Counted from the stretch's first letter, positions 4,480 through 50,344 are shown. The stretch is 64,000 bases of DNA from Patescibacteria group bacterium (GCA_038065395.1 JBBTRB010000004.1:70042-134041); one strand, 5' to 3'. Made by a program: numbers and translations. Notes: a model not told the origin generated them from the sequence alone.

Positions 4480-4550
4480 TGGTGGAGGTGAGGGGAATCG
4501 AACCCCTATGTTTATCTTGTCGAAGGATAACATCCGGCCTTGGCACCCCC
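4480..4550 (-). ncRNA. tRNA-like small RNA, copy 1 (71 nt)
   Basis: 7-bp acceptor stem GGGGGUG/CACCUCC. T-arm AGGGG-UUCGAUU-CCCCU. Discriminator A and encoded CCA. The body is 67 nt before the discriminator, about 5 nt too short for a cloverleaf. It is preceded by a conserved leader hairpin and by motif copy E. Confidence 0.6.
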
Positions 4551-4592
4551 ACGCGGGAAGATATCTATCCTCCGCAGGGTAACCATATCAGG

Positions 4593-4634
4593 TCGAGATG
4601 AAGAAACGATGAATTTAGGTTAAATTCTTGATAA
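4593..4634 (-). promoter_or_regulatory. Conserved upstream motif, copy E (transcription orientation: ttatcaagaatttaacctaaattcatcgtttcttcatctcgacc)
   Basis: Shares the core TTT(A/T)AC/GAGAC-TAAATTCAT-CGTTTCTT-CATCTC with the other copies. It sits about 45 nt upstream of the tRNA-like RNA 5' end. Confidence 0.55.
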
Positions 4635-4668
4635 AAAACAAAAAAACACACGTATCGAGCCATACCCC

Positions 4669-16046: not shown

Positions 16047-16116
16047 AGGTGGAGGTGAGGGGAATCGAACTCCCTAAGTCCTTCTTGCTGAGGGAAGACT
16101 TCCTCCAAGGCACCCC
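16047..16116 (-). ncRNA. tRNA-like small RNA, copy 2 (70 nt; CC encoded, terminal A not encoded)
   Basis: Acceptor GGGGGUG/CACCUCC. T-arm AGGGAG-UUCGAUU-CCCCU, with one mismatch. Conserved leader with hairpin GGAAAGUGAAAACUUUCC. Preceded by motif copy F. Confidence 0.5.
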
Positions 16117-16161
16117 CACGCAGGAAAGTTTTCACTTTCCGCAAAGTAACCATAACAGGGT

Positions 16162-16204
16162 GGTATGAAGAAATGATGAATTTAGTCTCAAGAAACGATA
16201 AAAT
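16162..16204 (-). promoter_or_regulatory. Conserved upstream motif, copy F (tttatcgtttcttgagactaaattcatcatttcttcatacc)
   Basis: Near-identical to copies A-C over its first 27 nt. Confidence 0.55.
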
Positions 16205-18697: not shown

Positions 18698-19567
18698 CTA
18701 GCGGTTGGAAGCCAGCATTGAATCGCCAACAGGTCTCCTGCTTGTATCGAAGTGATACCTGCGAACGACAGGCGGGTCGTCTTGAGTTACGACATTCATA
18801 GGATCATCCGGATGGAGAATCTTATGAATCTCCCGATGGATGGGATGCGTAGGTGTCCTGAGTCTGTTGAGGGCAGTCTGGAAAATGTCCTTCCAGGGTG
18901 ACCCTTGAGCTCTTTTGAGCAATTCTACCAGGAACATATCCAGCCTTTCGGTGAGTTCGACTTCACGAGACAGGTGGATACACTGGGTTCCCATCTGCTT
19001 GAGCATCGGGAATGTGCCAGTGACGCACTGATCCCAGCGTCGGTTGAGTATCTCTGGAGTCAACTCCTTTTCGACTCGTACTTCACTGGTTGCGCCTTGC
19101 ACCATCAACTGCTTCTGTCGTTCTTTGTGACGTTTGAACATCGAGTCGTCAGATTGTTGCCGACTCGCGTCAATGTTCACGGGGTAGGCACGACTGAAGA
19201 TGGTGAGCACTTCTTCCCATTGTGGCCATGTCCGAGGGACACCACCGAGCAGAAATATTCTCGCTGTCGGAATACTCTGTCGGATTTCTGCCAGCCATAC
19301 CCTCAATGTTTCCATTGTTACGTCATCGGGCGCGTAATAACCGAGCGCTGAGGGAGGAAGGCATTTCCTGATGCGAGCCCCGAGAGGCGACTTCAGGTTC
19401 ACTCCCCATTTGAAGAGTATCTGGCTCATGTCGAAACGTATGACGACTCGAGGACTAGCTTTGAATTTCGGCTTCAGGAGTAGTTCGAATAAATCGAGCA
19501 AAGTCGACTTTCCGTTCCCTCCTACTCCTGTTGCTACAACTGCTTCAATCGTATCGTGTACGGGCAT
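18698..19567 (-). CDS. P-loop NTPase of unknown function (Walker A ATGVGGNGKST)
   Basis: GxxGxGKST Walker A near the N-terminus. No further family-specific motifs recognised. Confidence 0.4.
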   Translation of the reverse strand: MPVHDTIEAVVATGVGGNGKSTLLDLFELLLKPKFKASPRVVIRFDMSQILFKWGVNLKSPLGARIRKCLPPSALGYYAPDDVTMETLRVWLAEIRQSIPTARIFLLGGVPRTWPQWEEVLTIFSRAYPVNIDASRQQSDDSMFKRHKERQKQLMVQGATSEVRVEKELTPEILNRRWDQCVTGTFPMLKQMGTQCIHLSREVELTERLDMFLVELLKRAQGSPWKDIFQTALNRLRTPTHPIHREIHKILHPDDPMNVVTQDDPPVVRRYHFDTSRRPVGDSMLASNR

Positions 19568-19745
19568 GCATTAAGTGTGGTTGAGTGTTTTTGTTTGTTT
19601 TTTGAAAAACTGCAAGCTGAACACCAGTCCGTTTCCGGATCCATATTCTGAAGAACAGCCGGCGAAAATCATATCATACTTTTGGAGAAAAGCAACAGGG
19701 TTGGGGAGAACGTGGGGATAGATGCCAGGACAGACTCTGACAGAT

Positions 19746-19787
19746 TTTATCGTTTCTTGAGACTAAATTCATACGGATTTTATCTCG
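19746..19787 (+). promoter_or_regulatory. Conserved upstream motif, copy B (tttatcgtttcttgagactaaattcatacggattttatctcg), upstream of pilB
   Basis: 41/42 identical to copy C and 39/42 identical to copy A. Confidence 0.55.
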
Positions 19788-19805
19788 CTCCTTTATCATA
19801 GCTCC

Positions 19806-20906
19806 ATGGATCATACTGTACTCAATTCACTTTCGGTCATAGAGCTTGTTGATGCACTCCTTCTGCATGCAGTGGGAGTCGGTGCATCAGACATACATTG
19901 CGACCCATGTGAGACGGGTATCTCGGTGCGCATGCGAGTCGATGGTATCGTCGAACATATAGGTGTGTTGTCGCGAGTATCACGTGAGGCGTTCATCGCG
20001 CGGCTCAAGATCCTTTCGGGAGCACGTACTGACATCCATCTCATACCACAAGATGGTAGATGGGCCGCGAACCTCGGTGCGCCGTATACTGTCCGCATTT
20101 CTTTTATGCCGACGTACCATGGAGAGAATGCCGTGATGCGACTCTTGCCCGTGCATACAGTCAGAGATATATCTCTACTCAAACTCGGATTCACTTATAG
20201 TCATATACAGGCACTCTCTACGGCCATATCCAAGACCAGTGGTCTCATATTGGTGACGGGACCGACTGGATCTGGCAAGACGACCACGCTCCATGCATGT
20301 TTGGCACACAAGGCCTCCAGAGACATCTCGATGATCACTCTCGAAGACCCGATCGAGTATGAGATACCAGGGATCCGACAGGTACATGTCAGATACGACC
20401 AGGGTATGAACTTTGCCCAGGGGTTGCGAGCGGCGCTCCGACAGGATCCGGACGTGATCATGGTCGGAGAGATCCGTGATGCAGAGACTGCCCAGGTGGC
20501 TATTCATACGGCGCTGACAGGGCATCTGGTGTTGTCGACACTACATACTAACTCCGCGCTCGAGACTATCCCGCGTCTTGTTGATATGGGAGTAGATCCA
20601 TATCTTCTAGCGGCGACATTGGTAGCTGTTGTGGGGCAACGACTGGTACGTACGCTGTGTTCTGGGTGCAATGGAGAGTTGTGTGTGCAGTGTCGTCAGA
20701 CAGGGTATATGGGAAGGAGTGTGATCGCAGAAGTGTGCGTCATCGATGCCGAACTCAAGAAGCTCATCGCACGGAAGGCGTCTTCAACAGAATACATAGA
20801 GCACGCTTTGGTGCAGGATTTTTGTACCATGGCATATGATGCCGCCGAAAAGGTCGAATGGGGTATTACTACCGAACAAGAAGTTCGTCGCGTTCTCCAT
20901 ATATAA
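19806..20906 (+). CDS. pilB: Type IV pilus/T2SS assembly ATPase (GspE/PilB family, core-only)
   Basis: Walker A LVTGPTGSGKTTTL. Asp box. Walker B VGEIRD. His box LVLSTLHTNSA. Tetracysteine CSGCNGELCVQCRQTGY. Confidence 0.85.
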   Translation: MDHTVLNSLSVIELVDALLLHAVGVGASDIHCDPCETGISVRMRVDGIVEHIGVLSRVSREAFIARLKILSGARTDIHLIPQDGRWAANLGAPYTVRISFMPTYHGENAVMRLLPVHTVRDISLLKLGFTYSHIQALSTAISKTSGLILVTGPTGSGKTTTLHACLAHKASRDISMITLEDPIEYEIPGIRQVHVRYDQGMNFAQGLRAALRQDPDVIMVGEIRDAETAQVAIHTALTGHLVLSTLHTNSALETIPRLVDMGVDPYLLAATLVAVVGQRLVRTLCSGCNGELCVQCRQTGYMGRSVIAEVCVIDAELKKLIARKASSTEYIEHALVQDFCTMAYDAAEKVEWGITTEQEVRRVLHI

Positions 20907-20910
20907 CCTC

Positions 20911-21972
20911 ATGCCTCTACCCTTACCCTCATACAAACAGAAATGGAGTCGTCGTAAGGTGACCCTGTTGCTCGAAAAGATCGAACTCTATCTCTCTGCA
21001 GGACTGAGCCTCGACCGAGCGTGTGATGTTGTATCACAGGGGATAGCAAAGAAAGATGCTCTTCGTATCCAGTCGCTCCGCCAAGATATCGAAAGGGGCG
21101 TTTCGTTGTCTGTCAGTCTGACTGAACACATCGGCATATCGTCGACGACCGCCACACTCATCCGTCATGGTGAGATGTCGGGTCAGCTGCCCAGAGCCTT
21201 GAGAACTTCACGGATATTGATAGAAAAGTCCGACGACATCATCCAGACATGTATATCAGCTCTTGCATACCCGAGTCTGATCGGTCTCTGTACTGCAGGG
21301 ATTACTCTCGGCTTGTTACGTGGAGTGATGCCACAGATCATACCGATGCTCAACAATCTCCATGTCGAACTGCCACTGCTCACCAAGATCGTGATCGCCC
21401 TTTCCGAAGGGATAGTCTTGTATGGCGGGTATGTCGTCTTGATGTTCATGGTGTTCGCGGTTCTGGGCACATATCTCTATCGTCGATATCGAGGTGTTCG
21501 TAGCATATGTCACCGTGTACTGACCTCTCTACCTATTTCAGGGAAGATATTGAACTCCTATCACGTCTCGCTTTTCTTGCGTTCACTGGGGTCACTCGTG
21601 GACTCAGGGTTGTCTATCTCGTATGTGTATCCGCATGTTGCACGAGGAGTGTCACTCGTGCCGCTTCAAGACATGTTGTCGGCTCGAGGGGATGATATCG
21701 AAAGGGGTACAGCGCTCGGTACCATCCTCACACATAGCCGGATCGCAGACTATGTCCCACCACTAGTATCTGCAGGAGAGAAGTCAGGGACACTAGGTCC
21801 GTCACTTATCCGAGCCGCAGATATTCTCGATCGAGATATAGAACGCTCTCTGAAACGTATGACATCGCTCATCGAGCCGCTGATGATGGTCTGTATGGGA
21901 TGCGTGGTCGGGGCGATCGCTTTATCCATCATGTTGCCTATATATGATATATCCAAAGTCTTACAACACTAG
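20911..21972 (+). CDS. pilC: Type IV pilus/T2SS platform protein (GspF/PilC family)
   Basis: Two GspF repeats with three TM segments. The start is placed at ATG 20911, directly after the pilB stop. Confidence 0.8.
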   Translation: MPLPLPSYKQKWSRRKVTLLLEKIELYLSAGLSLDRACDVVSQGIAKKDALRIQSLRQDIERGVSLSVSLTEHIGISSTTATLIRHGEMSGQLPRALRTSRILIEKSDDIIQTCISALAYPSLIGLCTAGITLGLLRGVMPQIIPMLNNLHVELPLLTKIVIALSEGIVLYGGYVVLMFMVFAVLGTYLYRRYRGVRSICHRVLTSLPISGKILNSYHVSLFLRSLGSLVDSGLSISYVYPHVARGVSLVPLQDMLSARGDDIERGTALGTILTHSRIADYVPPLVSAGEKSGTLGPSLIRAADILDRDIERSLKRMTSLIEPLMMVCMGCVVGAIALSIMLPIYDISKVLQH

Positions 21973-23323
21973 AGGTATGATCCTGATCGATATCATGATC
22001 GCCCTTTCGGTAGGGGTGCTTTTCGTTGCGGTTCTTTTTGAATCCTCGAGTACGGCACGGAGCCTCTTCGTTTGGAGTCGTGATCGCAGTAGATTCATGG
22101 ATATATATGAAGCGCATGCAGATGAATTCGAAGGTATGGTTCCTTCGGAGGTACGTACGCTCTCTGTAGTACATGACGCTACTCCTGTCGATCTTGTGGC
22201 CAGGGCACGATGGTATGGCAATGACCGGATCGAAACTGAGGTGACCGTCGGTGGTACGGTGACATTTTCTGCAGTGCGGGCGTATCCGTTTGCTGAGAGG
22301 GATGAGTCAGTATATACACCGATATGCTCCGTTGATCTCTATCGTACAGGAGTCATCAGGGTTGTACCCATTCTTATCCCTGGAATATCCGGCGAACTCA
22401 CTGATATCGAGGTACGCAATACGACAGCCTATATATCAGTTGATTCTGCTCGGGTCTCTGATCCGGATTTTGTAGTCGTGGATATTGCCAGCTCCTCGGA
22501 TCCTCGTATCATCTCGTCTATCCATACTGGTCCCGGCATGAGCTCGTTCTCATTGGTCGGTAGACGTATCTTTGCAGTTACGCAGAGTACGGTGGCACAG
22601 GTGCAGATCCTCGGTCTCGATGATGCGCAAGGTCTGCATCTAGAACAGAGTTACGTCTTGGTACGTCCGAGCACGACGACTCCTCCGACGGTCGGTAGTG
22701 CGACATTTGTGGCAGATGGGATGATGTTCGTCGGTACCGAGAAATGGCAAGGAAATGAGTTTATCGTGCTCGACGTGTCTGACCCTCTCCGCATAGTTCC
22801 GAGAGGGATGTTGGAGATAGGTGGCAAAGTCACCGACATCATCTCGCATCACGGTACGGCATATGTCACGGATGCCGCCGCATACCAGATGATCGCTGTA
22901 GATGTTACGGACCCTAGTGATCCGGTAGTACAGAACTCCTTCGAGCCTCCCGGTTGGAGTAGGCAAGAAGGCAAGACGCTATCGTATTTCGAAGAAGGAC
23001 TGACTCTCGGGCGTACCTCTGGCGGGTTCGACATCAGGTCGGAACATGAGCTGTTCTCCTGGGCTTCGACGTCGCCCCCGTCAGGTATATCTTCTTGGAA
23101 TATGCCCGGTGGAGCATATGGGATAGTGACAGATCGTATGCATACGTTCGTTGCAAGTCGGCAGAGAGATGCGGAGCTCCAGGTATTCGGACGAGACATG
23201 TCGACTGGTCCGATAGCGACATACCCCCTACCCGCATTGGCTCGAGGGCTCGTCTGTGACGGAGACCGTATGTATATGGTAGACAGCTCAACACCCACTC
23301 TGTATGAAATATCATTCAACTAA
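21944..23323 (+). CDS. Large pseudopilin-like protein: prepilin-type N-terminus fused to an LVIVD-repeat beta-propeller
   Basis: Leader MIYPKSYNTRG, then MILIDIMIALSVGVLFVAV (class III signal-like, Asp at +5). Repeated v.DvSdP..P..v units (VVDIASSSDPRII, IVLDVSDPLRIVP, IAVDVTDPSDPVV), i.e. LVIVD repeats. It overlaps the pilC 3' end by 29 nt. Confidence 0.55.
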   Translation: MIYPKSYNTRGMILIDIMIALSVGVLFVAVLFESSSTARSLFVWSRDRSRFMDIYEAHADEFEGMVPSEVRTLSVVHDATPVDLVARARWYGNDRIETEVTVGGTVTFSAVRAYPFAERDESVYTPICSVDLYRTGVIRVVPILIPGISGELTDIEVRNTTAYISVDSARVSDPDFVVVDIASSSDPRIISSIHTGPGMSSFSLVGRRIFAVTQSTVAQVQILGLDDAQGLHLEQSYVLVRPSTTTPPTVGSATFVADGMMFVGTEKWQGNEFIVLDVSDPLRIVPRGMLEIGGKVTDIISHHGTAYVTDAAAYQMIAVDVTDPSDPVVQNSFEPPGWSRQEGKTLSYFEEGLTLGRTSGGFDIRSEHELFSWASTSPPSGISSWNMPGGAYGIVTDRMHTFVASRQRDAELQVFGRDMSTGPIATYPLPALARGLVCDGDRMYMVDSSTPTLYEISFN

Positions 23324-23480
23324 TCACACTCAGTCACAGGGGATGACGTTGATAGAGATCGTCATATACACGTCTCTATTATCGCTCCTCGTGGCCAGTC
23401 ATATTGCCTATACCTATGAGATACAGCTCCATAATATCAACCTATCCCATGAGATCACTGATGCCGAGAACAACCAGTAA
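23304..23480 (+). CDS. Small type IV pilin-like protein (58 aa; below the ORF-track cutoff)
   Basis: Translation MKYHSTNHTQSQG|MTLIEIVIYTSLLSLLVASHIAY... shows the classical prepilin signature: G at -1, Met at +1, Glu at +5 and a hydrophobic helix. It overlaps its neighbours by 20 nt on each side. Confidence 0.5.
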   Translation: MKYHSTNHTQSQGMTLIEIVIYTSLLSLLVASHIAYTYEIQLHNINLSHEITDAENNQ

Positions 23481-23748
23481 AGGCTTCATCGCATTGATAG
23501 CGGTGTGTATGCTTGTCACGGGAACATTGGCAGGGACAGTCGCGATCCTGGTCAGAGCCGATGCCTATGCAGACACAGTCAGGCGACGCGAGATGAGGAT
23601 ACAGAGGAGGCTCGATGTCCATGCATGTCTCGATACGGTCAATCTCATGATCACTCGAGATGTGTTTTTGCGGGGAGCTGTATATATTCGAGATTTTGAT
23701 TGTAGGGTATACGTGGATAGTGATGGTCGTGTGACAGTGATCGAGTAG
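23461..23748 (+). CDS. Pilin-like (minor pilin/pseudopilin) protein
   Basis: MPRTTSKG|FIALIAVCMLVTGTLAGTVAIL is a prepilin-like leader plus hydrophobic helix, with no Glu at +5. The ATG lies inside the 3' end of the preceding small pilin gene. Confidence 0.45.
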   Translation: MPRTTSKGFIALIAVCMLVTGTLAGTVAILVRADAYADTVRRREMRIQRRLDVHACLDTVNLMITRDVFLRGAVYIRDFDCRVYVDSDGRVTVIE

Positions 23749-23778
23749 CAGACTCCCCCTAGGGTAGACCTAGGAAAA

Positions 23779-23821
23779 TTTTATCGTTTCTTGAGACTAA
23801 ATTCATACGGATTTTATCTCG
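23779..23821 (+). promoter_or_regulatory. Conserved upstream motif, copy C, upstream of the major pilin gene
   Basis: tttatcgtttcttgagactaaattcatacggattttatctcg. Confidence 0.55.
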
Positions 23822-23861
23822 TGGTGTTACGGTAGATGTATTACTCATAAACAATACACAT

Positions 23862-24332
23862 ATGTATATACATCAACACAAGAAACAAGGTTTCACCCTT
23901 ATCGAAGTACTCGTAGTCATCGGCATCATCGCACTCTTATCAGCGGTCGTCATCGTTGCAGTCAACCCCGCTCGTCAATTCAAACTAGCTCGAGATTCGC
24001 AGAGAACCAGTAACGTCAATTCGATCGTCAACGCACTTCACCAAAACATGGCAGAGCATCGAGGGTCTCTGGTATGTGCCGGAGTCACTCGGACTATACC
24101 GCTCGTTGCTACCGTGATCAGGAGTGGTGCTGCAGGATATGAGGGCGACATTGCCTCATGCATAGTACCCGACTATATCGGTGCAGTACCATTCGATCCG
24201 GTTATTATGGGAGCACATTTTACAGATAGTACAGACTATATGACAGGCTACGAGATATTCCGTGACGCTCAGGGTAGGATCACTGCAAGCTCAACCGGGG
24301 AGCTTGTTCAGACGATATCGGTGACAAAGTAA
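23862..24332 (+). CDS. pilA: Type IV major pilin (PilA/ComGC-like)
   Basis: MYIHQHKKQG|FTLIEVLVVIGIIALLSAVVIVAV is a canonical class III signal (G-1, F+1, E+5). Confidence 0.75.
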   Translation: MYIHQHKKQGFTLIEVLVVIGIIALLSAVVIVAVNPARQFKLARDSQRTSNVNSIVNALHQNMAEHRGSLVCAGVTRTIPLVATVIRSGAAGYEGDIASCIVPDYIGAVPFDPVIMGAHFTDSTDYMTGYEIFRDAQGRITASSTGELVQTISVTK

Positions 24333-24392
24333 AAAACCACCTTTATACAAATGCCTACTTTAGTAATCAGTATGTTATAATATCGAACACAT

Positions 24393-25019
24393 ATGGCCAA
24401 TACGCTCTCATATCAATCTTCCCTCGAGCAACAGACATCTGTTCCTGTTATGTCTACACCTGTGATCCAGATCGGACACATGGAGGCATTCGTGGGTATT
24501 GTTGTATTTCTCGTAGGTTTGGTTATTTCTTGGGGAACCCTCAGAGCGAAACTTGATCATGTTGCAAGTACTCTCAAAGACAAGATAGAACCAGATCTCA
24601 TGGATGTTCGAGAGAAGTTCACTACGGTGAAGGATCGCGTCGAGACATTGTGGCAAGATAGATTTGCCCCTTCTCGATCACCGAGACAACTCAACGAACG
24701 AGGAGAGAATGTTCTCCGTGAAAGTGGCATTACACACATTCTTTCCAGGATACGACTACAGCTTCTTGATGAGATAAAGACCAAAAATCCTGCGAATGCA
24801 TATGATGCAGAACAAGTTGTATTAGAAGTAGTATCAGATATAACAAAACATCATCCAGAGGTTCTCGACGAACTCAAGAATGGAGCTTTCAGAGTTGGAG
24901 AAAATATAGATACTGTATTGCTCGTAGGAGGTATTCACTTGAGAAATGAGATATTTCCTGAACTCGGTTTCTCGTTGACTGATCTCGATATGCCAACACA
25001 TTCTGAAAGAGGAAAGTAA
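24393..25019 (+). CDS. Hypothetical single-TM protein, possibly a pilus-associated (PilN/PilO-like) component
   Basis: One TM helix followed by predicted coiled coil. Assigned by position after the pilin gene only. Confidence 0.35.
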   Translation: MANTLSYQSSLEQQTSVPVMSTPVIQIGHMEAFVGIVVFLVGLVISWGTLRAKLDHVASTLKDKIEPDLMDVREKFTTVKDRVETLWQDRFAPSRSPRQLNERGENVLRESGITHILSRIRLQLLDEIKTKNPANAYDAEQVVLEVVSDITKHHPEVLDELKNGAFRVGENIDTVLLVGGIHLRNEIFPELGFSLTDLDMPTHSERGK

Positions 25020-25042: not shown

Positions 25043-26056
25043 GTGCGGTACCATAGTAGTATGTCCGTTCCACAAAGGAATATTCTCGTCTTTCTCTTTT
25101 TCTGTATGGGCTTTGCTTCGTCTGCGGTAGGGTTGAGAGCCTATGAACTCCATCGACAGGATGTTGCGTTGGCTGCATTGACAGCTGTTCAAGATGCGCG
25201 ATTGCGTCAGGCGATCGAGATAGCGAAGTCTTCTTTGTCGATACCCGCAGATCCTTTGTCGACAGATACAACTCCGGAAAAAACAGGAGAGGCTCAGGTA
25301 CCAGCAAAACCAAGAGGCTTACCTGGCGTGACTGCCCAGGCCTATATCGTCGGTAACGTAGAGACAGGGGAGATCTATCTTTCGTACAACTCTCAACAAG
25401 CACTACCAGTCGCCTCGATGTCCAAGCTCGTCACAGCATTCGTGGCTACACGAGAGTTGCCGTTGGACAAAGTCATCGAGATCGACAAAGACGCCGCTGA
25501 TGCACCACCTGACAAGAGTTTGCTCAAAGTAGGTGAACTCTTTACTGTCTCAGAACTGATGAAGCCGCTTCTTCTGAGTTCTTCCAATGTGGCCGCCGAG
25601 GCACTCGTCTCCAAGATCGACCGCAACGGCTTCTTGGAACTCATGAGTAGTTATGCCTGGGAGATCGGTATGCCGTCGACATTCTTCGCAGATCCTTCGG
25701 GAGTAAGTCCGCTCAATGTAGCCTCGGCCAAAGATCTCTTTGCTCTCGCACAATATCTCCATGGTTCACGTCCAGATATTCTGGCTCTGACTCGTGATGC
25801 ATATGTTGCAATAGCCACAACCACAGAACATGGATCTCATGAGGTCACGAGCACTCATCCGTTCGTGAAAGATCCACGGTTCATCGGGGGCAAGACGGGC
25901 AGGACTCCTCAGGCTGGTGATACGATGCTGACTATCCTCGAGTTGGGGGGTCAACCGGTTGCTATTGTTGTTCTTGGTTCGCGCTACGAAGGTCGTGCAG
26001 AAGACACTCGACTGCTCGCAGTAAAAGCAGAGGAGTTGATGCAGAAAGAAAGGTAA
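25043..26056 (+). CDS. dacA: D-alanyl-D-alanine carboxypeptidase (S11 peptidase, PBP5/6-like)
   Basis: SxxK (ASMSKLV), SxN (LLLSSSNVA) and KTG (GGKTGRT) motifs. Signal peptide. Confidence 0.8.
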   Translation: MRYHSSMSVPQRNILVFLFFCMGFASSAVGLRAYELHRQDVALAALTAVQDARLRQAIEIAKSSLSIPADPLSTDTTPEKTGEAQVPAKPRGLPGVTAQAYIVGNVETGEIYLSYNSQQALPVASMSKLVTAFVATRELPLDKVIEIDKDAADAPPDKSLLKVGELFTVSELMKPLLLSSSNVAAEALVSKIDRNGFLELMSSYAWEIGMPSTFFADPSGVSPLNVASAKDLFALAQYLHGSRPDILALTRDAYVAIATTTEHGSHEVTSTHPFVKDPRFIGGKTGRTPQAGDTMLTILELGGQPVAIVVLGSRYEGRAEDTRLLAVKAEELMQKER

Positions 26057-26067
26057 AAACATAACTA

Positions 26068-26174
26068 CTTGTAAAAATCTGTGCGGACAGGACACGGATA
26101 TTTTTCTGCTGAAAAATTCCTAGTGCTCGCGCCAGTCGCGCTCGCAATGTCCTGTCCGCACAGATTTTTACAAG
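26068..26174. repeat. Perfect 26-bp inverted repeat (cttgtaaaaatctgtgcggacaggac) flanking a 55-nt spacer
   Basis: Positions 26068-26093 are the exact reverse complement of 26149-26174. The element lies between the convergent dacA and PMM genes. Confidence 0.7.
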
Positions 26175-26196
26175 CAGTTTCGCCTTGGGACAAGCT

Positions 26197-26952
26197 CTAA
26201 GAGATAAGCCAGGTGCGGATAAGTCGTTTCGTCTCTTCGGGACCGGCCACTTGGATACAGTCAACGCCGATGGCTTTGGCAGGGTAGTCGTTGCCTCCAT
26301 GGTAGAGCGCATCACCTACGAAGAGCATGCGATGAATGGGAGTTGCGAGGTGTGTTTCGAGTTTGCGTATGCCGTAGGCCTTGTTGACTCCGCGTCTGGT
26401 GATGTCGATAGATGTGGTGCCACCGAGACGAATATCGAATTCAGGGATCTTATCTTTGAGGATAGTTACGATCTTCTCACGTTTGCTACGGTCCGAGTCC
26501 CAAGCTTCTTTGGCCTCAAGTGGTGCTTCTTGGCCGAGTGCAGAGAAGGTCACTTGTGATCCGCGGTCTTCGATGATCTCACCATATGTTTTGGTAGGCT
26601 TCTGGTATCCACCACGGCGCAAAGCGTCTTGTAGTGCGCTATGGATCTTGTCTTTCTCTGGGGTCGAGAGTTGCTCGGAATATTCTTCATGCCAGGAACC
26701 TTTCCAGGTCAGCATACGTGTACCAGATGTTGGTAACAAGAAGAGATTATCGAAGCCTTCGGCTGTATGGGGCAAGGTGCGGAGAAGTTGTGTTTCGAAC
26801 TGAGGATATCCACCACCAGAGATGATCGCGACTTTCTTCTTCTGGATAAGGCGCACCAGAAGTTCGCTCATCTCGGTATCCATGGTTGACTTGCTCGGGG
26901 CAAGCGTGCCATCGAGGTCGAATATTACAAGAGTTTTGGTTGAGAAATCCAT
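26197..26952 (-). CDS. Eukaryotic-type phosphomannomutase (HAD superfamily, PMM family)
   Basis: LVIFDLDGTLAPSKSTMDTEMSELLVRLIQKKKVAIISGGGYPQFETQL aligns closely with human PMM2 ([49 protein letters not shown]). The C-terminal FVGDALYHGGND matches FFGDKTMPGGND. Confidence 0.8.
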   Translation of the reverse strand: MDFSTKTLVIFDLDGTLAPSKSTMDTEMSELLVRLIQKKKVAIISGGGYPQFETQLLRTLPHTAEGFDNLFLLPTSGTRMLTWKGSWHEEYSEQLSTPEKDKIHSALQDALRRGGYQKPTKTYGEIIEDRGSQVTFSALGQEAPLEAKEAWDSDRSKREKIVTILKDKIPEFDIRLGGTTSIDITRRGVNKAYGIRKLETHLATPIHRMLFVGDALYHGGNDYPAKAIGVDCIQVAGPEETKRLIRTWLIS

Positions 26953-26959
26953 GATGAAG

Positions 26960-28534
26960 TTACGCAGTGATTATCGGTAATGAGAATGAGAAGGTGCTAC
27001 CGGTGCCGAGTCCCGCGGACTCCACCCATATCTTGCCTTTGTGATGCTCGATGATCTCCTTGGACATGAAAAGTCCGATACCCATACCCTCAGTGTCGGT
27101 GACTTTGGCTTTGGTGCCGCGATAGAATTTGGAGAAAAGAAGAGGGACTTCTTCTGCAGGGATGCCAATGCCTGAATCAGTGACAGAACAGACGATATGA
27201 CCAGCTTCTTTTTTCAAGGAAATACGTACTGTTCCACCTGAGGCTGTGTAGTTGATAGCATTCTCTACGAGTGTCTGGATAACAAAGCGGATACGGTGCT
27301 CATCGAACACGCTGGTGATGTTCGGTTCGATGTTCTTGCTAAGCGTAATATGTTTGGCGATGGATTCTTGGATGAGTGACTGTGCAAGTGTCTCGGCGAT
27401 CTCAGATATGGAATTCGTCTTGAGCCTATAGTCCTCAGTTCCTTTTTCTTCCTCGGATACATTAACAAGCAAGTTGGTAAGCTCTACCAGTTTGCTGTTG
27501 GCGTTCTGAATATACTCGACTTGGGTTTTGTCTTCTGCGGGTAGATTTCGATTGGAGAGATTCTCCGAAGCCCATTTGATATGAGTGAGCGGTGTACGGA
27601 ATTTGTGAGTGACGGTCGTGATGAACTCGTATTTGAGGATGTCGGTTTTGCGGAGATTCCTCCAGGCGAGTACTCCGATCGTTACAACGAGTACTGATGA
27701 TATGAGCGCGATGATCCATCCAGGGAAGTTGGGTATGAGCAATCGGATCCATTGTTGTGACGAGTTCAGCAAGATGATGAATCCGCCAACTCCGACGATC
27801 GCGAGACTGTAGAAGAATGCTTGTTTTGCGATAACTTTGATATCGAAGAGCTCATAGCGGATAGCTCCATAGGTGAATACGGTCGCGAAGACCATTGAGA
27901 ACGCCATGCCCCAGAGAGGGTCGATAGCGATATCATATACCAAGAAGTTCGGAATAAAGCCGATCGCATAGCCGATGAGCATGGTCAAAAAGAGATATGT
28001 GTAACGCTTACTGTCGATCGGAGTCGAAGCGGTCTTACGGGCACCGTAAAGAATATAGAGACAATACGGAACGACGAGGCCGTAGAGAAATATGATGCGT
28101 GAAATATTGAGTATTCCTGGCTCATAGTAGTTGGGGAAATACATTTTCGGAACAGAATCAATCAAGAAAAGCTGAGGGAAGAATGAGAAAAATATCACTG
28201 CACCTGAGGCGATTGCGTAGCTTGTATATATCAACCATTTTTTCTTGTCGGCGAGTCCGCAGAATGCCAGTACTGAATGGAGGTTGAATGCGGCAATGAA
28301 GAACAGAGATACATTGAAGGTCAGTACGATCCGGGATATGGCTGGATTGTCTATGTTGACTCCGATGACATGAGATATGGTGAATACGGTGATCGCAAGC
28401 ATCATCAGACTCCACGCAACATTGGCTGTCTTGTGTCTGCCGTTGAGGAAGGTGAAGAACGCCATAGCGAACAGGGTGATGGTCGATATGATGCAAACGA
28501 TATTATGGATGATGAGATGAAGAGAAGAGTTCAT
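26960..28534 (-). CDS. Sensor histidine kinase with N-terminal multi-TM sensor, paralog 2
   Basis: H-box HKFRTPLTHIKWASENL and HATPase_c motifs. The architecture and TM region are similar to the kinase at 10286-11869. No adjacent response regulator. Confidence 0.8.
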   Translation of the reverse strand: MNSSLHLIIHNIVCIISTITLFAMAFFTFLNGRHKTANVAWSLMMLAITVFTISHVIGVNIDNPAISRIVLTFNVSLFFIAAFNLHSVLAFCGLADKKKWLIYTSYAIASGAVIFFSFFPQLFLIDSVPKMYFPNYYEPGILNISRIIFLYGLVVPYCLYILYGARKTASTPIDSKRYTYLFLTMLIGYAIGFIPNFLVYDIAIDPLWGMAFSMVFATVFTYGAIRYELFDIKVIAKQAFFYSLAIVGVGGFIILLNSSQQWIRLLIPNFPGWIIALISSVLVVTIGVLAWRNLRKTDILKYEFITTVTHKFRTPLTHIKWASENLSNRNLPAEDKTQVEYIQNANSKLVELTNLLVNVSEEEKGTEDYRLKTNSISEIAETLAQSLIQESIAKHITLSKNIEPNITSVFDEHRIRFVIQTLVENAINYTASGGTVRISLKKEAGHIVCSVTDSGIGIPAEEVPLLFSKFYRGTKAKVTDTEGMGIGLFMSKEIIEHHKGKIWVESAGLGTGSTFSFSLPIITA

Positions 28535-28543
28535 GGTGAGAGG

Positions 28544-30424
28544 TTATGTCTTGAGCATGTCGAGCAACGTGTCCATGCGGATAGTTGCAACACCGACGAC
28601 GCTGTCTCCGCCACCATAATATATGTAGGCAGTACCACCACGGACGACCATGCCGCAAGGGAAGACGACATTGGGTACGATGCCTTTGCGCTCGTATTCT
28701 TCTTTGGGTTCAAAGAGGGGGATAGCCGTACGTGCGATCACTACAGTGGGATCTTTGAGGTCGAGCAGCACAGCTCCTACGCGATAGGTCGTGCTCCAGG
28801 ATACACCATGATAGAGCAGGAGCCAGCCGGCCTTGGTCTTGATCGGAGGACTAGCGATACCGACCTTGCCGCCATCCCACATGCCTCTGCGAGGTGCGAT
28901 GATCTCGATGCATTGGTTGATGCGTTCTTTGATGAAGTCGAGCGAAGAGACAAAGTCAGCGCAAATACTTTCATTCACTCGATGGAAGATCAGATATTTG
29001 CCATTAATCGGTTCGGGAAGGATGGCTGAGTCCTTGTTGACGACACCCGGAGGAGTGATCACCTGAGGCATAGACCAGCCGCTCCATTTCCGGGCAAGAA
29101 AATCTTTCGTGGAGATCGAACTCACGGCTACTCGTGGGGTGGTGCCATCGTAGCCGGTGTAGGTTATGTAGACGTGGTCGCCGATAATGCCAAGACGTGG
29201 ATCTTCGCAGCCATGTTTTTCGAAATCTGCACGGGGGAAATAAACGGGCTTGTCGAGGCGTTCGTCGATCGAGAATCCGTCGCTACTCGTGGCATATCCT
29301 ATGGTCGATACATTGTCTTTGGAGCAAGCGCGATAGAGGATATGAGTTTTGTTGCCGAGGTCGATCGCCGCTGGGTTGATCGTGCCACCTTCTTCCCAGA
29401 GCATGCCAGGGCGCGGGGTGATGATCGGGTTGCCGGGAAACCGTTTGATATGAGCGTGAGGTTTGTCGATGATGCTCTCGAGAAGATTGTCGAGTGGGAT
29501 GGTCGCTATGGCACAATGGGTATCAGCGGCGCCATAGTGTATCTCGAGGTTCTCTCCGCGAATGAGTGCCCCTGACGGGAAGGTGATATGAGGTACGAGG
29601 CCGGTATGTTCGTAGTAGGTATCTGGCACCATGAAAGGTCCTTTGGTACGGCCGATGATCTTGCGAGGATTCTTGAGGTCAAGAAGGACAACTTCGATAC
29701 CAAAAGCCACATCAGGACGGTCGTAGCGTTGCATATGAGAGTATACCACCAGCCAACCTTTGTCGGTCTTGAGCGGTGGTGCACCGAGCTCGAGATGGTC
29801 ACTGTCGAGTCTGCGGATATGGAGCTTGTGACCGTCGATGTTCTTGTACCATTCATCCCAATATTCCTTGGACCAAAGCTGTTCTAGAGTATCGAACTCG
29901 GCATAACAGATCTCGGCAGGGCGATGGTCAGGGTTGACTGTCAGGAGTGCTGCGTATTTGCCTCCGATCTTGTTCGGAAAAAGCGCCATAGCTTTTGCAT
30001 TGAAAGGGGTGACAAGATGTTTCTCGTCGACCGTTTTGAGATCTTTGGAAAGAGCAACAGCTACTTTGACGTTGTCAGCAGAGAAAGGGAATCCGCCAAG
30101 TCCAGTATAGAAAATATAATATGTCCCCTCGATCTTGGTGATACGAGGATCTTCACATCCGTAGCGGTCATAGTCAGTGCTCGGTTCGATGAGCACTGCT
30201 CGGTCGGTAAAATTGATACCGTCAGTGGATACAGCGTGGCCGATGACTGACATGCGGATATGAGGCTCCTTGAGGAGTTGTGGTTCTGACATCGCACGAT
30301 AGACGAGATGGGTTTTCTTGCCCTGCACGATCGGGCACCCATTGAACGCCGCCGCCGCCTCCCATGGGTGACTTTTGAGAGGAGAGAGGATTGGGTTGTG
30401 TTCTGAACGGTTGAGAGTGAACAT
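28544..30424 (-). CDS. Tandem-duplicated GH130-family glycoside phosphorylase (two beta-mannoside phosphorylase-like domains)
   Basis: Two GH130/DUF377-like halves (HNPILSP...HLVYRAMS... and NPIITPRPG...HILYRACS...), each with repeated beta-propeller blades. The single-domain paralog 30435-31553 is conserved Asp-rich. Confidence 0.7.
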   Translation of the reverse strand: MFTLNRSEHNPILSPLKSHPWEAAAAFNGCPIVQGKKTHLVYRAMSEPQLLKEPHIRMSVIGHAVSTDGINFTDRAVLIEPSTDYDRYGCEDPRITKIEGTYYIFYTGLGGFPFSADNVKVAVALSKDLKTVDEKHLVTPFNAKAMALFPNKIGGKYAALLTVNPDHRPAEICYAEFDTLEQLWSKEYWDEWYKNIDGHKLHIRRLDSDHLELGAPPLKTDKGWLVVYSHMQRYDRPDVAFGIEVVLLDLKNPRKIIGRTKGPFMVPDTYYEHTGLVPHITFPSGALIRGENLEIHYGAADTHCAIATIPLDNLLESIIDKPHAHIKRFPGNPIITPRPGMLWEEGGTINPAAIDLGNKTHILYRACSKDNVSTIGYATSSDGFSIDERLDKPVYFPRADFEKHGCEDPRLGIIGDHVYITYTGYDGTTPRVAVSSISTKDFLARKWSGWSMPQVITPPGVVNKDSAILPEPINGKYLIFHRVNESICADFVSSLDFIKERINQCIEIIAPRRGMWDGGKVGIASPPIKTKAGWLLLYHGVSWSTTYRVGAVLLDLKDPTVVIARTAIPLFEPKEEYERKGIVPNVVFPCGMVVRGGTAYIYYGGGDSVVGVATIRMDTLLDMLKT

Positions 30425-30434
30425 GAAATTAAAG

Positions 30435-31553
30435 TTATACTTTGCCGTATTTCATCAACCACGTTAATAACGCATCGACATTCGTCTGGGCTACACAGGC
30501 ATGCTTGTCACCACCGCCATAGTAGACGGTCAGTGTGCCATCCTTGATCAGAGCTCCGCAGGCATAGACGACTCCTGGTTTCCAGTCATTCTCATAATGT
30601 GCGCATGGTGAGAGGATCGGTGCAGGAGAGCGATAGAGTATCTTGGTCGGATCTTCGAGATCGAGGATCATCGCACCGACGTTGTAGCCACCTTTGTATA
30701 TGGCATGATAGAGAACGAGCCAGCCTTTGTCGGTTCGCAGTGGTGCTGCACCGGCACCCTTCATGACTTTGTCCCAATGATCCTCTCGTCCAGGGTCATG
30801 CGCGCCGTATCCTCCATGATCGCGAGAACTCTGGATCGGCGGTACTGCATCGAGACTGTCGACATAGGCCACCAGCACTTTGGGTGCCACACTATGAAGG
30901 ATGGCGTATTTGCCACGGATCTTCTCGGGGAAGATCACCCAGTTTTTCGCACGAGCCTTCGCTGGGGAGATGAGTGCAGTGCGTCGCCAGTTCCAACGAC
31001 GCTTCTTGATATTCTCGAGAGAGATAGACGTCAGAGCGATACGCATATCATTCCAGCCTTCGAAAGCGGTGTATGTCATATAGACTTTGTCACCGATTCT
31101 TGTGGCGCGAGGATCTTCTGCGCCGCCCCAGCCACCACCAGACGGGTTGAGCGCACTATGTCTCCTGTGTTCGTCGGTCACCGAAGTCGGCTCCGGCATG
31201 CCGTATCCTGGTAGGGGTACATAGACAGGGTAAGGGGACAGTTCGTCGATGTGTGTGCCATCAGAAGAGAAGGCGTGACAAATGCGTGATATGCCATCAG
31301 ACCCGATAGCACGATAGAAGAGATGCACGCCCCCATCGTCATCCTCGATAGCTGTAGGGTTGAAGGTTCCTTGAGATTCCCATTCGCGATGGCCTTGTGG
31401 ACTGATGACAGGATTGGCATGATGACGTTCGAGCTCGTGCTTCCAGTACGTCGCTGATCCGCGCTTCCTCGAGCTCCACCAGGTATATATGATTGCACCA
31501 ATGATGGCGATGCTCGCAAATATGATGACAAATGTATTGAGGGAATAGTCCAT
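30435..31553 (-). CDS. GH130-family glycoside phosphorylase with N-terminal TM anchor
   Basis: N-terminal TM helix, then ANPVISP...GTFNPTAIEDDDGGVHLFYRAIG, typical of the GH130 beta-propeller. Confidence 0.7.
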   Translation of the reverse strand: MDYSLNTFVIIFASIAIIGAIIYTWWSSRKRGSATYWKHELERHHANPVISPQGHREWESQGTFNPTAIEDDDGGVHLFYRAIGSDGISRICHAFSSDGTHIDELSPYPVYVPLPGYGMPEPTSVTDEHRRHSALNPSGGGWGGAEDPRATRIGDKVYMTYTAFEGWNDMRIALTSISLENIKKRRWNWRRTALISPAKARAKNWVIFPEKIRGKYAILHSVAPKVLVAYVDSLDAVPPIQSSRDHGGYGAHDPGREDHWDKVMKGAGAAPLRTDKGWLVLYHAIYKGGYNVGAMILDLEDPTKILYRSPAPILSPCAHYENDWKPGVVYACGALIKDGTLTVYYGGGDKHACVAQTNVDALLTWLMKYGKV

Positions 31554-31571
31554 GGGTACGTTACATATATA

Positions 31572-31928
31572 TTATGACGATGCGGTTCGCCCATACCTGT
31601 CTTCGAGGCGAGTGATATCTTTTTCATCAAAGGTGCCAAATGATATTTCGAGAAATACGACTGGAGTATCACCAGCCTGGATGCGATGCGCTGTTTCTCG
31701 GGGTACGAAATAGTCACCAGTTACGATCGGACGTGATGTGTCGCCGATAATGACCGTGCCAGTACCAGAGAGAATGTGCCAGAATTCATCGCGGTTATGG
31801 TGAGTCTGAAGACTAAAAGCCTCACCTGGGTTTACAGTGATGATCTTGATAGTCGAAGGTACGTTACACGTATATTCTATGAAGTCTCCCCACGGTTTTT
31901 TTTCTTGAAATGGTTTCGGAGGTTGCAT
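31572..31928 (-). CDS. Cupin-type mannose-6-phosphate isomerase-like protein (COG0662-like)
   Basis: PWG.F.....IK.ITV.PG...SLQ.H..R.E.W.ILSG.G.V..GD......GDYF.VP....HRI.AGDTP..FLEI fits the small PMI cupin pattern. Confidence 0.6.
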   Translation of the reverse strand: MQPPKPFQEKKPWGDFIEYTCNVPSTIKIITVNPGEAFSLQTHHNRDEFWHILSGTGTVIIGDTSRPIVTGDYFVPRETAHRIQAGDTPVVFLEISFGTFDEKDITRLEDRYGRTASS

Positions 31929-43485: not shown

Positions 43486-43794
43486 CTCCGGAGACAGGAT
43501 TCGAACCTGTGACCAATCGCTTACGTATACTCCACTATTACTAATGGTACGGACTATATCATTCCCATATTCCACGGTCAGTGGAAGTTAGGGAAGAGGC
43601 GCTTCGTCCGATGCAACATCGGACTACTCCCCGAAGGGATAGTCTCTACACCTTCCCCGACATGATGTCGGGGCTTGGCTCGGTATTGCCCATGGGGATG
43701 GGTTTCACCGAATTCACCTCTTTTTCGATCCGTCTTTCAACGAAAAGCTGCAATAAGTTTACAGGCGACTGCTCTACCGCTGAGCTACTCCGGA
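43486..43794 (-). tRNA. tRNA-Asn(GUU) interrupted by a 237-nt group I intron between anticodon-loop positions 35 and 36
   Basis: 5' exon 43761-43794: UCCGGAG-UA-GCUC-AGCGGUA-GAGC-A-GUCGC-CUGU. 3' exon 43486-43523: UAA-GCGAU-UGGUC-ACAGG-UUCGAAU-CCUGU-CUCCGGA-G. The spliced product is close to E. coli tRNA-Asn, with the identical CUGUUAA loop and G73. The intron starts after U. Its internal guide GCAG pairs with exon CUGU (U.G at the splice site). It has AGACUA...UAGUC P7-like strands and ends in G. Confidence 0.75.
43524..43760 (-). other. Group I intron (no internal ORF)
   Basis: See the tRNA-Asn entry. The P1 helix, ~237-nt size and terminal G fit a tRNA-type group I intron. The track ORFs inside it are spurious. 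Confidence 0.65.
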
Positions 43795-44039
43795 ATGTAT
43801 TTTTTAAGGAACTCCTTTCCGTATCCACTCTTCAATCTTTTCTCTTCTTGCCTTGCCGCAGACCTATCCTTTCCTACTAACTTACAATATATCATTTTCC
43901 ACGGTCTGTATGGTCGAGTAGAAGTTACTTCACCGGCATTATGTTCGATAAGCCTTTTCTCTGGGTGATAACTCATGCCGACATATATCCTGTGGTCTAC
44001 TTCGCTGAGTAGTGCATATACGTAGTACATCTTCTCCAT
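43785..44039 (-). CDS. Small GIY-YIG nuclease-domain protein (84 aa); its stop codon overlaps the first 10 nt of the tRNA-Asn 5' exon
   Basis: MEKMYYVYALLSEVDHRIYVGMSYHPEKRLIEHNAGEVTSTRPYRPW... shows the GIY-(10-11 aa)-YVG pattern plus the conserved R and E/N. The start is placed at the internal Met; the upstream part of the track ORF overlaps the duplicated exon. Confidence 0.55.
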   Translation of the reverse strand: MEKMYYVYALLSEVDHRIYVGMSYHPEKRLIEHNAGEVTSTRPYRPWKMIYCKLVGKDRSAARQEEKRLKSGYGKEFLKKYIPE

Positions 44040-44050
44040 GAGATAGAGTT

Positions 44051-44112
44051 TATCACAGGCAACTGCTCCCTGCCTGCCGGCAGGCAGGTACCGCTGAGCT
44101 ATCCCGGAATAG
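44051..44112 (-). repeat. Degenerate duplicate of the tRNA-Asn 5' exon and exon-intron junction, carrying a 20-nt perfect palindrome insertion (cctgcctgccggcaggcagg)
   Basis: Minus-strand reading: UCCGGGAUAGCUCAGCGGUA[CCUGCCUGCCGGCAGGCAGG]GAGCAGUUGCCUGU-GAU-AAAC. The true gene reads UCCGGAGUAGCUCAGCGGUAGAGCAGUCGCCUGU|AAAC. Confidence 0.6.
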
Positions 44113-44171
44113 GTCTCTATCTCAATGCGAACATGAGAAAATGTACCACATATGGTACCGTAAATCAAAAC

Positions 44172-44396
44172 ATGTACATACACGTCAGAGTTATTGCCGA
44201 TGCACGGAAAGAAGAGGTTACGCATACCTCGAAGGATCATATGGTCATACGAGTGACAGAGAAGGCCGAACGCAATCAGGCCAACAAAAGAATTCTGGAA
44301 ATACTTCGAAGTTTATACCCGAATACCTTCATCCGTATTATCAATGGTCACCATTCACCATCGAAACTCATATCAGTCGATACGAAAGATGAGTAG
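44172..44396 (+). CDS. DUF167 (YggU-like) family protein
   Basis: IHVRVIADARKEEV.....MVIRVTEKAERNQANKRILEILRSLYPNTFIRIINGHHSPSKLISV matches v.v.a.P.A..n.....l.v.v.a.P..GkAN..l...La..l......i.iv.G..sr.K.i.i. Confidence 0.5.
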   Translation: MYIHVRVIADARKEEVTHTSKDHMVIRVTEKAERNQANKRILEILRSLYPNTFIRIINGHHSPSKLISVDTKDE

Positions 44397-50234: not shown

Positions 50235-50305
50235 TGGTGGACCGAACGGGAATCGAACCCGTACGCCTCAGCTGATGAGGAGAGGCTGGCACCATGCCTC
50301 GGCCC
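50235..50305 (-). ncRNA. tRNA-like small RNA, copy 3 (71 nt, CCA encoded)
   Basis: Acceptor GGGCCGA/UCGGUCC, compensatory relative to copies 1 and 2. T-arm ACGGG-UUCGAUU-CCCGU. Leader hairpin GCGGAAGAC-ucu-GUCUUCCCGC. Preceded by motif copy G. Confidence 0.6.
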
Positions 50306-50344
50306 ACGCGGGAAGACAGAGTCTTCCGCACATACACCGTAACA

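Follow-up and report, generated by a model that had tools for sequence, protein, structure and literature searches.

The 64-kb stretch of DNA analyzed here (64,000 nt of a 761-kb Patescibacteria group bacterium genome; called the window below) carries a compact group of genes that probably encodes the motor and the tip, or priming, complex of a type IV pilus in an episymbiont of the class Paceibacteria, with a β-propeller adhesin held on a shaft built from a 156-aa pilin. The core of the locus consists of pilB, pilC and genes for a 459-aa propeller-bearing pilin, a 58-aa pilin precursor (the mini-pilin) and a 95-aa protein (p95); these five genes stand in the order just given in about 70–80 Paceibacteria genomes, counted at species level. 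All open reading frames (ORFs) of the locus lie on the plus strand, and the ORF list places them, together with an exact 20-nt overlap of the 58-aa ORF with each of its two neighbors, where a first-pass annotation made from the sequence had put them. That annotation took the region for a type IV filament locus that encodes an assembly ATPase and a platform, a view borne out by Pfam and NCBIfam matches and by the solved relatives of these proteins. The propeller pilin, mini-pilin and p95 genes are co-oriented, overlap one another and lie 3′ of the ATPase and platform genes, and each of their products begins with a short polar leader, an invariant glycine and then about 22 hydrophobic residues. 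The six frames of the window contain just three occurrences of a class III signal pattern (glycine, then a hydrophobic stretch, with an acidic residue at +5), all of them in this locus, in the 459-aa, 58-aa and 156-aa proteins; thus, these pilin signals are not a chance pattern.

Conservation was scanned with one genome per species, and 80 loci encoding a relative of the 459-aa protein were found, all of them in Parcubacteria/Paceibacteria-type metagenome-assembled genomes (MAGs; Taylorbacteria, Paceibacterota, Minisyncoccia and others). Matches by tblastn to the window genes, in constant order and orientation, are present in 79 of the 80 loci for pilC, 75 for pilB, 69 for p95 (after the mini-pilin) and 54 for the mini-pilin. 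When the ORFs of the loci are clustered, those five genes alone are constant, and the flanks vary and are of a housekeeping nature. The propeller pseudopilin and the nested small genes had been called unusual, a description that needs qualification, since a large clade has the module as a rule and Saccharibacteria have already provided one example of a pilin with a propeller. The window derives from a groundwater MAG. An exact copy of the 459-aa protein is encoded on an ENA contig of the 0.2 µm fraction of Hainich groundwater, and the protein is also encoded, with a later start, in an NCBI MAG named "Patescibacteria group bacterium" (locus tags AAB381_*).

The pilB product (19,806–20,906; 366 aa; MEK7646443.1, named GspE/PulE family at NCBI) matches T2SSE (PF00437) from end to end (3e-104). 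It aligns to positions 180–460 of the PilB model and 108–387 of the GspE model, that is, to their C-terminal two thirds only, and lacks the N-terminal ∼180 aa of these models; it is therefore a core-only ATPase. The Walker A, Walker B, Asp and His boxes can all be located, and a condensed tetracysteine (zinc knuckle) of the form CxxC-x4-CxxC occupies residues 285–296, a spacing common to 54 of 69 PilB family members; both the core-only form and the tetracysteine had been noticed in the first-pass annotation. Its closest solved relatives are EpsE, PilF and PilB, and PilT is far weaker. The pilC product contains two T2SSF stretches (PF00482, 4e-29), and the GspF, PilC and ComGB models align to it from end to end with scores below their cut-offs. 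Its earlier identification as PilC stands, but the start of the ORF does not: the listed ORF (20,836–21,972; 378 aa) has a start that is probably unused, and the gene most likely begins at 20,911 (20,911–21,972), because the resulting 353-aa protein is that of NCBI entry MEK7646444.1 and the family median is 354 aa.

The propeller pilin gene (21,944–23,323) overlaps pilC by 29 nt, and its start codon is embedded in conserved Tyr-Asp codons of PilC. The structural modeling that had been suggested for this protein was done with AlphaFold2 on a 45-sequence alignment and gives a pilin fold plus seven blades (predicted local distance difference test, pLDDT, 90.4; predicted template modeling score, pTM, 0.84). 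The modeled pilin module has a helix (8–62) and a four-stranded sheet (70–113), and after a linker, 28 strands make up the seven blades (138–458). The proposal that a pilin module is fused here to a β-propeller is thus supported by the model and by the signal, in which, at the DNA level, Gly-1 is present in 61 of 61 loci and the +5 residue is Asp in 55 and Glu in six. The +1 residue is Met in only 10 of the 61 and something else in 51, so that an upstream start and a translated leader are required. In the window protein the leader MIYPKSYNTRG (21,944–21,976) precedes MILID...; the public annotation, whose start is corrected here, begins at Met12 (448 aa, MEK7646445.1) and probably omits this leader. 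Cys128 and Cys438 are invariant in the 45-sequence alignment and could close the propeller ring.

The assignment of the blades to LVIVD repeats (PF08309) is marginal for the window protein itself (20.5 bits, cut-off 20.2) and holds for the family, in which 29 of 45 members match (best E-value 5.9e-13). Pfam finds nothing else in the family, neither RCC1 nor a PilY1 C-terminal domain family, and the family profile has no match among PDB sequences. In a Foldseek search of the PDB, the model resembles only propellers of generic kinds (WD40, BamB and PON-type), and the 50 best matches listed do not include PilY1. In the first-pass annotation PilY1 was said to have a different propeller; the 459-aa protein has no PilY1 family match and includes a pilin module of its own. 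The protein has 76 full-length homologs (31–60% identity). An exhaustive profile search with the family gives 2455 representatives at E≤1e-30, a number that takes in giant LVIVD-type repeat proteins sharing the blades; of the best 150 matches, roughly a hundred or more are full-length proteins.

The mini-pilin gene (23,304–23,480) encodes a 58-aa precursor in which MKYHSTNHTQSQG stands before MTLIE, with a predicted mature product of 45 aa. Its start codon is embedded in conserved Tyr-Glu codons of the propeller C-terminus. In 74 of 81 loci, at only ∼19–55% identity, the motif G/[MFILV]TLIE..IY..LLS lies directly 3′ of the propeller gene. The mini-pilin has an ORF to itself in 68 loci; in 47 of these it and the propeller gene overlap (the overlap being exactly 20 nt in 14), and the overlap with p95 is mostly 4–20 nt; the mature length in these loci is 40–51 aa in 67 and 33 aa in one, with a median of 44 and 48 of the 68 at 43–45 aa. 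G13 (Gly-1) and E18 (Glu5) are invariant in the 67 orthologs, and 60 of the 67 members match N_methyl (E≤0.01); the window protein scores 19.2 bits, just under the cut-off of 21.2. NCBI entry MEK7646446.1 is the same protein with an identical start. By these comparisons the 58-aa ORF is a real gene for a conserved mini-pilin, as first suggested, because its position, length and motif are conserved, N_methyl matches are widespread, in-frame fusions to its neighbor occur (below) and NCBI annotates it. The mature product would be hardly more than an α1 helix and lacks a globular domain, which is atypical for a pilin.

The p95 gene (23,461–23,748; 95 aa, MPRTTSKG/FIALIAV...) begins at Met20 of a 114-aa ORF with a TTG start, and its start codon is embedded in conserved Asp-Ala codons of the mini-pilin tail. 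The family consensus is leader-(K/R/N)G/F(I/M)A..AV.LLA.G.LAFSL...SYADSV.RRE.RIQ..LN..AC.D...LM.AKDYF..G.....EFGC; residues G8, R46 and C56 never vary, conservation of F9 and C81 is at least 90%, and there is no acidic residue at +5. Many members are 110–130 aa long, with extra strands. No Pfam, NCBIfam or PDB relative was found, the NCBIfam results for 61 members being noise and a profile search of PDB sequences giving only spurious PsbM transmembrane matches; PADLOC reports nothing for the unknown proteins. When p95 is aligned by hhalign with the mini-pilin and propeller-pilin families, the leader-Gly-hydrophobic part is matched with a probability below 5%, and a word-indexed homolog search with p95 alone finds two proteins, so that a concatenated mini-pilin plus p95 profile was needed. 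The description of p95 as pilin-like therefore stands for its predicted architecture (G/F, a ∼60-residue helix, a hairpin and two Cys) and not for membership in any family. The net charge is +2.0 before its hydrophobic stretch and +0.5 after it, as in the propeller pilin and the major pilin, which is consistent with an N-in, C-out orientation. A cytoplasmic C-terminal domain, hinted at by the fusions described next, was considered and rejected, since here too, as in the other pilins, the flank on the N-terminal side of the hydrophobic stretch has the higher net charge.

In six loci the mini-pilin and p95 form a single in-frame ORF, and a profile search of the database finds at least 10 further fused proteins. 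This recurrent fusion is absent from the account in the first-pass annotation. At the junction the invariant G/F of p95 is kept, the p95 leader is replaced by the acidic mini-pilin tail, and the linker has essentially zero length. One clade retains the fusion across divergence down to ∼67% identity. Three other fusions are singletons on short contigs, with unfused nearest relatives, so either fusion arose more than once or these three are frameshift errors. The AlphaFold2 model of one natural fusion, P0098 (alignment A3; pLDDT 79, pTM 0.42), has a helix at 14–46, a low-confidence hinge at 47–52, a second helix at 53–113 and a hairpin at 120–131, and Foldseek finds no match to it at all. Its p95 part looks, in this model, like a minimal "lollipop" of a ∼60-residue helix plus a β-hairpin. 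The in-frame fusions show that the mini-pilin and p95 act together. A more specific possibility, which must be regarded as speculative and unlikely, is that the tip unit obligately consists of these two chains and that one polypeptide, a tandem prepilin, can also supply both, being either cut twice by prepilin peptidase or used as a double-length subunit. If true, no type IV filament has been described with such a precursor or such a tip architecture, and a large class of episymbiotic bacteria would have conserved it.

The gene for the 156-aa protein (23,862–24,332; MYIHQHKKQG/FTLIE...) follows the module. With its short basic leader, Gly-1, Phe+1, Glu+5 and hydrophobic helix, it is the canonical type IVa-like pilin that it had been taken for: it matches N_methyl (8e-9; 35.1 bits, cut-off 21.2) and TIGR02532 (30.7 bits, cut-off 16.3) and aligns over α1 with solved major pilins. 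Where it adjoins the module, it is 52–81% identical and the best-conserved pilin of the set, and it is probably the major subunit. A 43-nt motif is found in exact copies at 19,745–19,787, 18 nt 5′ of the pilB start codon, and at 23,779–23,821, 40 nt 5′ of the 156-aa pilin gene, as the first-pass annotation had seen. The same element (TTTTATCGTTTCTTGAGACTAAATTCAT...) occurs at least seven times in the window, so a pilus-specific role, which was considered, is rejected. A copy with one mismatch (1987–2029) precedes a PemK-like/dnaG unit, and the three plus-strand copies are 42–43/43 identical; a diverged copy lies at 55,498–55,561 (plus strand), 5′ of proS, and reverse-orientation copies at about 4598–4636, 16,165–16,203 and 50,352–50,390 precede three minus-strand tRNA-like genes. 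Since it stands before unrelated genes and tRNA-like genes as well, it is a general promoter-like element, and it presumably works as a promoter. A terminator-like hairpin (CCTAGGGTAGACCTAGG; 23,758–23,774), found by a consensus scan, lies between the p95 stop (23,748) and the second motif copy and presumably works as a terminator. The five-gene module and the 156-aa pilin gene are probably separate transcription units, because the motif precedes each and the hairpin follows p95.

The three minus-strand genes behind this motif (4480–4600, 16,047–16,167 and 50,235–50,354) are related to one another and resemble small RNA genes. Each has a hairpin on the 5′ side, and the ∼73 nt after it include an acceptor-like stem, then a long hairpin, a T-arm (GGTTCGATTCC) and an end resembling CCA; compensatory changes are present in 12 of 40 predicted pairs among the three copies. 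ARAGORN finds no tRNA anywhere in the window, and Rfam finds nothing in these genes at gathering score; two of the three score weakly as tRNA-like ends of tmRNA.

The absence from the window of a prepilin peptidase, PilT and PilM/N/O/Q, also reported in the first-pass annotation, is confirmed: there are no matches to Peptidase_A24, PilT or PilM/N/O/Q among the plausible window ORFs of at least 110 aa. In the 80 related loci no membrane ORF within 8 kb carries the prepilin-peptidase motif GxGD[VI]K; a second PilB/PilT-like ATPase is found neither in the window nor within 8 kb in 76 loci, and PilM/N/O are not near the module in the clustered loci. The pilD, pilT and pilM genes may lie elsewhere in the 761-kb genome, and the minimal system proposed in the first-pass annotation is accordingly tentative.

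These features suggest the following model for a propeller-tipped pilus. A prepilin peptidase encoded elsewhere would cleave the leaders after Gly. The p95 protein, which has no acidic +5 residue, like tip subunits such as GspK, would cap the filament; the 45-residue mini-pilin, with its Glu5, would join next, contributing only a core helix, and the propeller pilin, with Asp5, would then join through its pilin module. Since the two small partners have little or no globular head, they would leave room for the seven-bladed propeller to sit at the tip, where its ligand would be a molecule on the host surface, probably a glycan or glycoprotein. The overlapping start codons would couple translation, so that the three proteins would be made in fixed proportion and in small amounts. 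The 156-aa pilin, presumably made abundantly from its own strong promoter-like copy, would polymerize below them as the shaft, driven by PilB and PilC. The tip-adhesin role first proposed for the 459-aa protein fits, by analogy, the single experimental precedent, PilX2 of TM7x (discussed below).

Several observations weigh against this model. Leader cleavage, incorporation into the filament, tip location and the ligand are all points that we infer from sequence and from analogy with known systems. N_methyl matches none of the 45 propeller family members, and since only generic propellers resemble the blades, there is no pointer to a ligand. The case of p95 is similar: N_methyl and PilX_N match 0 of 61 members, and profiles, hhalign and NCBIfam detect no homology to any pilin. 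The model of the P0098 fusion, given its low pTM, shows no confident packing of the two helices; furthermore, a fused precursor is hard to reconcile with two parallel pilin subunits, and its second G/F would lie at the outer face of the membrane. Of 81 loci, only 33 have the 156-aa pilin gene beside the module, which makes its link to this motor tentative, and no prepilin peptidase is present in the window or within 8 kb in the related loci.

A different function for the whole locus would be a Com-like DNA-uptake pseudopilus, a short retractile fiber that captures extracellular DNA for nucleotide scavenging, with the propeller or the small pilins as the DNA receptor. The core-only ATPase, as in ComGA, the lack of PilT and PilM/N/O nearby, and the matches to the ComGA (7e-68) and ComGB (6e-36) models all favor such a role, as does the gene order, since comG operons also run ATPase–platform–pilins. 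The p95 N-terminus, with G/F and no Glu5, presumably resembles that of ComGG as well. However, the ComGA and ComGB scores (228.5 against a cut-off of 300, and 124.4 against 240) are below those of GspE, PilB and GspF; no pilin of the locus matches the ComGC–GG models above noise, the matches of ComGC/D/E/F being to the signal peptide of the 156-aa pilin only and far under their cut-offs; and comEA, comEC and dprA do not adjoin the module in any related locus. In addition, the propeller-pilin system of TM7x makes no contribution to competence (PMC11623550). We therefore consider a Com-like role unlikely.

The remaining alternatives concern the small proteins. One supposes that the mini-pilin and p95 form a membrane pair in the assembly platform, PilN/PilO-like and a two-helix hairpin when fused, so that the filament would take in only the propeller pilin and the 156-aa pilin. 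It would account for the fusions with zero-length linkers, whose simplest topology is N-in, a first transmembrane segment, a short outside loop and a second transmembrane segment, for the two long helices with a hinge in the AlphaFold2 model, for the failure of p95 to match pilin models and for the lack of PilM/N/O near the module. Against it stand the textbook class III signal of the mini-pilin, with invariant Gly-1 and Glu5 and N_methyl matches in most members, and we know of no role for such a signal outside pilins; the G/F of p95 is invariant even in the fusions, its two near-invariant Cys suggest an extracytoplasmic disulfide as in the pilin D-region, and its flank charges are like those of the propeller and major pilins. 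A membrane pair of this kind is, in our judgment, distinctly unlikely. In another alternative a very thin filament, made of helices alone and tipped by the propeller pilin, would have the mini-pilin as its major subunit, and the 156-aa pilin would belong to another system. Here it can be said that the mini-pilin is always in the operon and the 156-aa pilin adjoins it in only 33 of the 81 loci, that very thin type IV pili are known in Saccharibacteria (PMC11623550), and that Geobacter has helix-only pilins, whose solved chains were matched (PMC5174107). On the other hand, the mini-pilin gene has no promoter of its own and is translationally coupled inside the motor operon, which suits a low-abundance subunit, whereas the 156-aa pilin has its own strong promoter-like copy and is the most conserved pilin; the major pilin of the thin TM7x pilus, moreover, is described as a normal "lollipop" pilin (PMC11623550). 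This arrangement therefore seems very improbable. Finally, the 58-aa ORF might be an untranslated chance frame in the overlap region, as it is short, overlaps both neighbors, has no Shine-Dalgarno-like sequence and is skipped by one gene caller on the identical ENA contig. The recurrence of its motif, position and length at low sequence identity, its N_methyl matches, its in-frame fusion to the next gene across a whole clade and its NCBI annotation argue otherwise, and this conservation effectively excludes the idea. The propeller-tipped pilus thus remains the reading that we consider probable.

The surroundings of the module vary. A 208-aa ORF with one hydrophobic segment (24,393–25,019) follows the 156-aa pilin gene; it was considered as a further member of the module and rejected, as it has no counterpart among the 80 related loci and no family match. 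Three downstream contexts recur: the 156-aa pilin gene followed by a D-Ala-D-Ala carboxypeptidase gene and a mannose-metabolism cluster; scpA-scpB-ftsW-murG; and trxB and ftsZ on the opposite strand. Co-directional downstream genes were likewise discarded as candidate pilus genes, since they are scpA, scpB, ftsW, murG and gltX. In the window, the block at 25,043–31,928, which is kept 3′ of the pilin gene in about 20–30 loci, encodes a D-Ala-D-Ala carboxypeptidase, a phosphomannomutase-like HAD protein, a histidine kinase, two GH130 mannoside phosphorylases and a cupin-type mannose-6-phosphate isomerase, and may be a mannan or mannoside salvage route beside the surface-filament genes. On the other side, divergent from and 5′ of pilB, lies a gene for a 289-aa protein (18,698–19,567, minus strand) with weak adenylate-kinase/P-loop similarity, which is kept in this position in about 22 related loci.

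The remaining genes of the window are ordinary housekeeping genes, among them rpoC, dnaG, rpoD, hisS, typA, mreC and genes for PBP2, several tRNA synthetases and the GH130 enzymes. Two mreB paralogs (50,458–51,471 and 57,324–58,388, plus strand) lie 7 kb apart and are 70% identical over a stretch of ∼158 nt; mreC and a gene for a PBP2-type transpeptidase come after the second. Sequences like the 5′ half of a tRNA (GGAGTAGCTCAGCGGTAGAGC...) at 43,775–43,796 and 44,089–44,110 (minus strand) form a partial duplicate 314 nt apart and flank an ORF (43,785–44,240, minus strand) with a GIY-YIG nuclease domain, an arrangement that could reflect insertion of a homing endonuclease into a tRNA gene or beside it. 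An Rfam match to WsnRNA46 in the gap between a holB-like gene and frr (53,162–53,381, plus strand; 35.6 bits against a gathering score of 65.3, E 0.0014) is probably due to chance.

Apart from a few cultured Saccharibacteria, little is known of the means by which ultrasmall Patescibacteria locate their hosts and stay attached to them, and the module is a compact, sharply defined and widely conserved candidate for this function in Paceibacteria, a very abundant and almost wholly uncultured class. Its propeller domain is a testable adhesin candidate, the propeller pilins make up a modular family that is missed by the standard pilin signature, and the recurrent fusion of the unusually small, helix-only mini-pilin to its neighbor is relevant to filament nucleation by minor pilins. 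Type IV pili in Patescibacteria, modular pilins and a propeller-bearing pilin are already known. A limited full-text search of the literature did not find descriptions of the five-gene Paceibacteria module, the LVIVD-type propeller pilin family, a 43–45-residue helix-only pilin or its recurrent fusion to a partner without Glu5.

Among systems that are simple in gene content, the Com pilus shares with the locus a short ATPase, a platform protein and small pilins in one operon, a monoderm host and the lack of PilT, PilM/N/O and secretin; it differs in having no counterpart of the propeller pilin, the locus has no adjacent DNA-uptake genes, and the model scores are under the cut-offs. In the GspI-GspJ-GspK and FimU-PilV-PilW-PilX tips, one pilin without Glu5 caps the fiber. 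As in these systems, pilins of presumably low abundance are encoded together here and p95 has no Glu5, but there are only three proteins, one of them without a globular domain and one of only 95 aa, and the GspH/I/J/K and PilV/W/X models find nothing beyond noise in the pilins of the locus. PilY1/PilC of type IVa pili likewise places a seven-bladed propeller at the pilus tip (a location that is proposed here) together with minor pilins. PilY1 itself is no pilin and docks on the minor-pilin complex, whereas here the propeller is covalently fused to a pilin module and shows no match to the PilY1 C-terminal family.

The PilA-N/PilA-C pair of Geobacter (PMC5174107) also combines a helix-only pilin with a small partner and exists in fused and split forms. 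PilA-N, however, is the major subunit, with 61 aa in its mature form (PMC5174107), whereas the mini-pilin is 43–45 aa long and probably minor; p95, moreover, keeps a leader-Gly-hydrophobic start of its own, so that the fusion consists of two tandem segments rather than of one split pilin. Modular pilins are widespread and thought to be located at the tip (PMC8179133), and those of Streptococcus sanguinis, PilB with a vWA module and PilC with a lectin module (PMC8179133), resemble the propeller pilin in joining a small pilin module to a bulky one through a short linker and in being proposed as tip adhesins of monoderm type IV pili. In the propeller pilin the grafted module is a β-propeller and the +5 residue is mostly Asp, not Glu. 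Since the N_methyl/IPR012902 signature finds none of the 45 family members, a survey of modular pilins based on it would have missed them.

The closest precedent is the T4P-2 system of Nanosynbacter lyticus TM7x with its minor pilin PilX2, a pilin that has a heptabladed RCC1 propeller and a non-canonical signal; host binding depends on it, whereas filament extrusion and competence do not (PMC11623550). Like the locus studied here, that system belongs to Patescibacteria and has a PilB/PilC pair with no retraction ATPase in the locus, and PilX2 resembles the 459-aa protein in its C-terminal seven-bladed propeller and in a signal peptide that standard predictors do not recognize. The two differ in that the PilX2 propeller is made of RCC1 repeats and that of the window protein is LVIVD-type with no RCC1 match; the second TM7x locus includes PilM/N/O, which are not near the module here, and neither a 45-aa mini-pilin nor a fusion of it to p95 is described there. 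PilX2, which was compared through its published description, and the LVIVD propeller pilin thus appear to be analogous and only possibly homologous.

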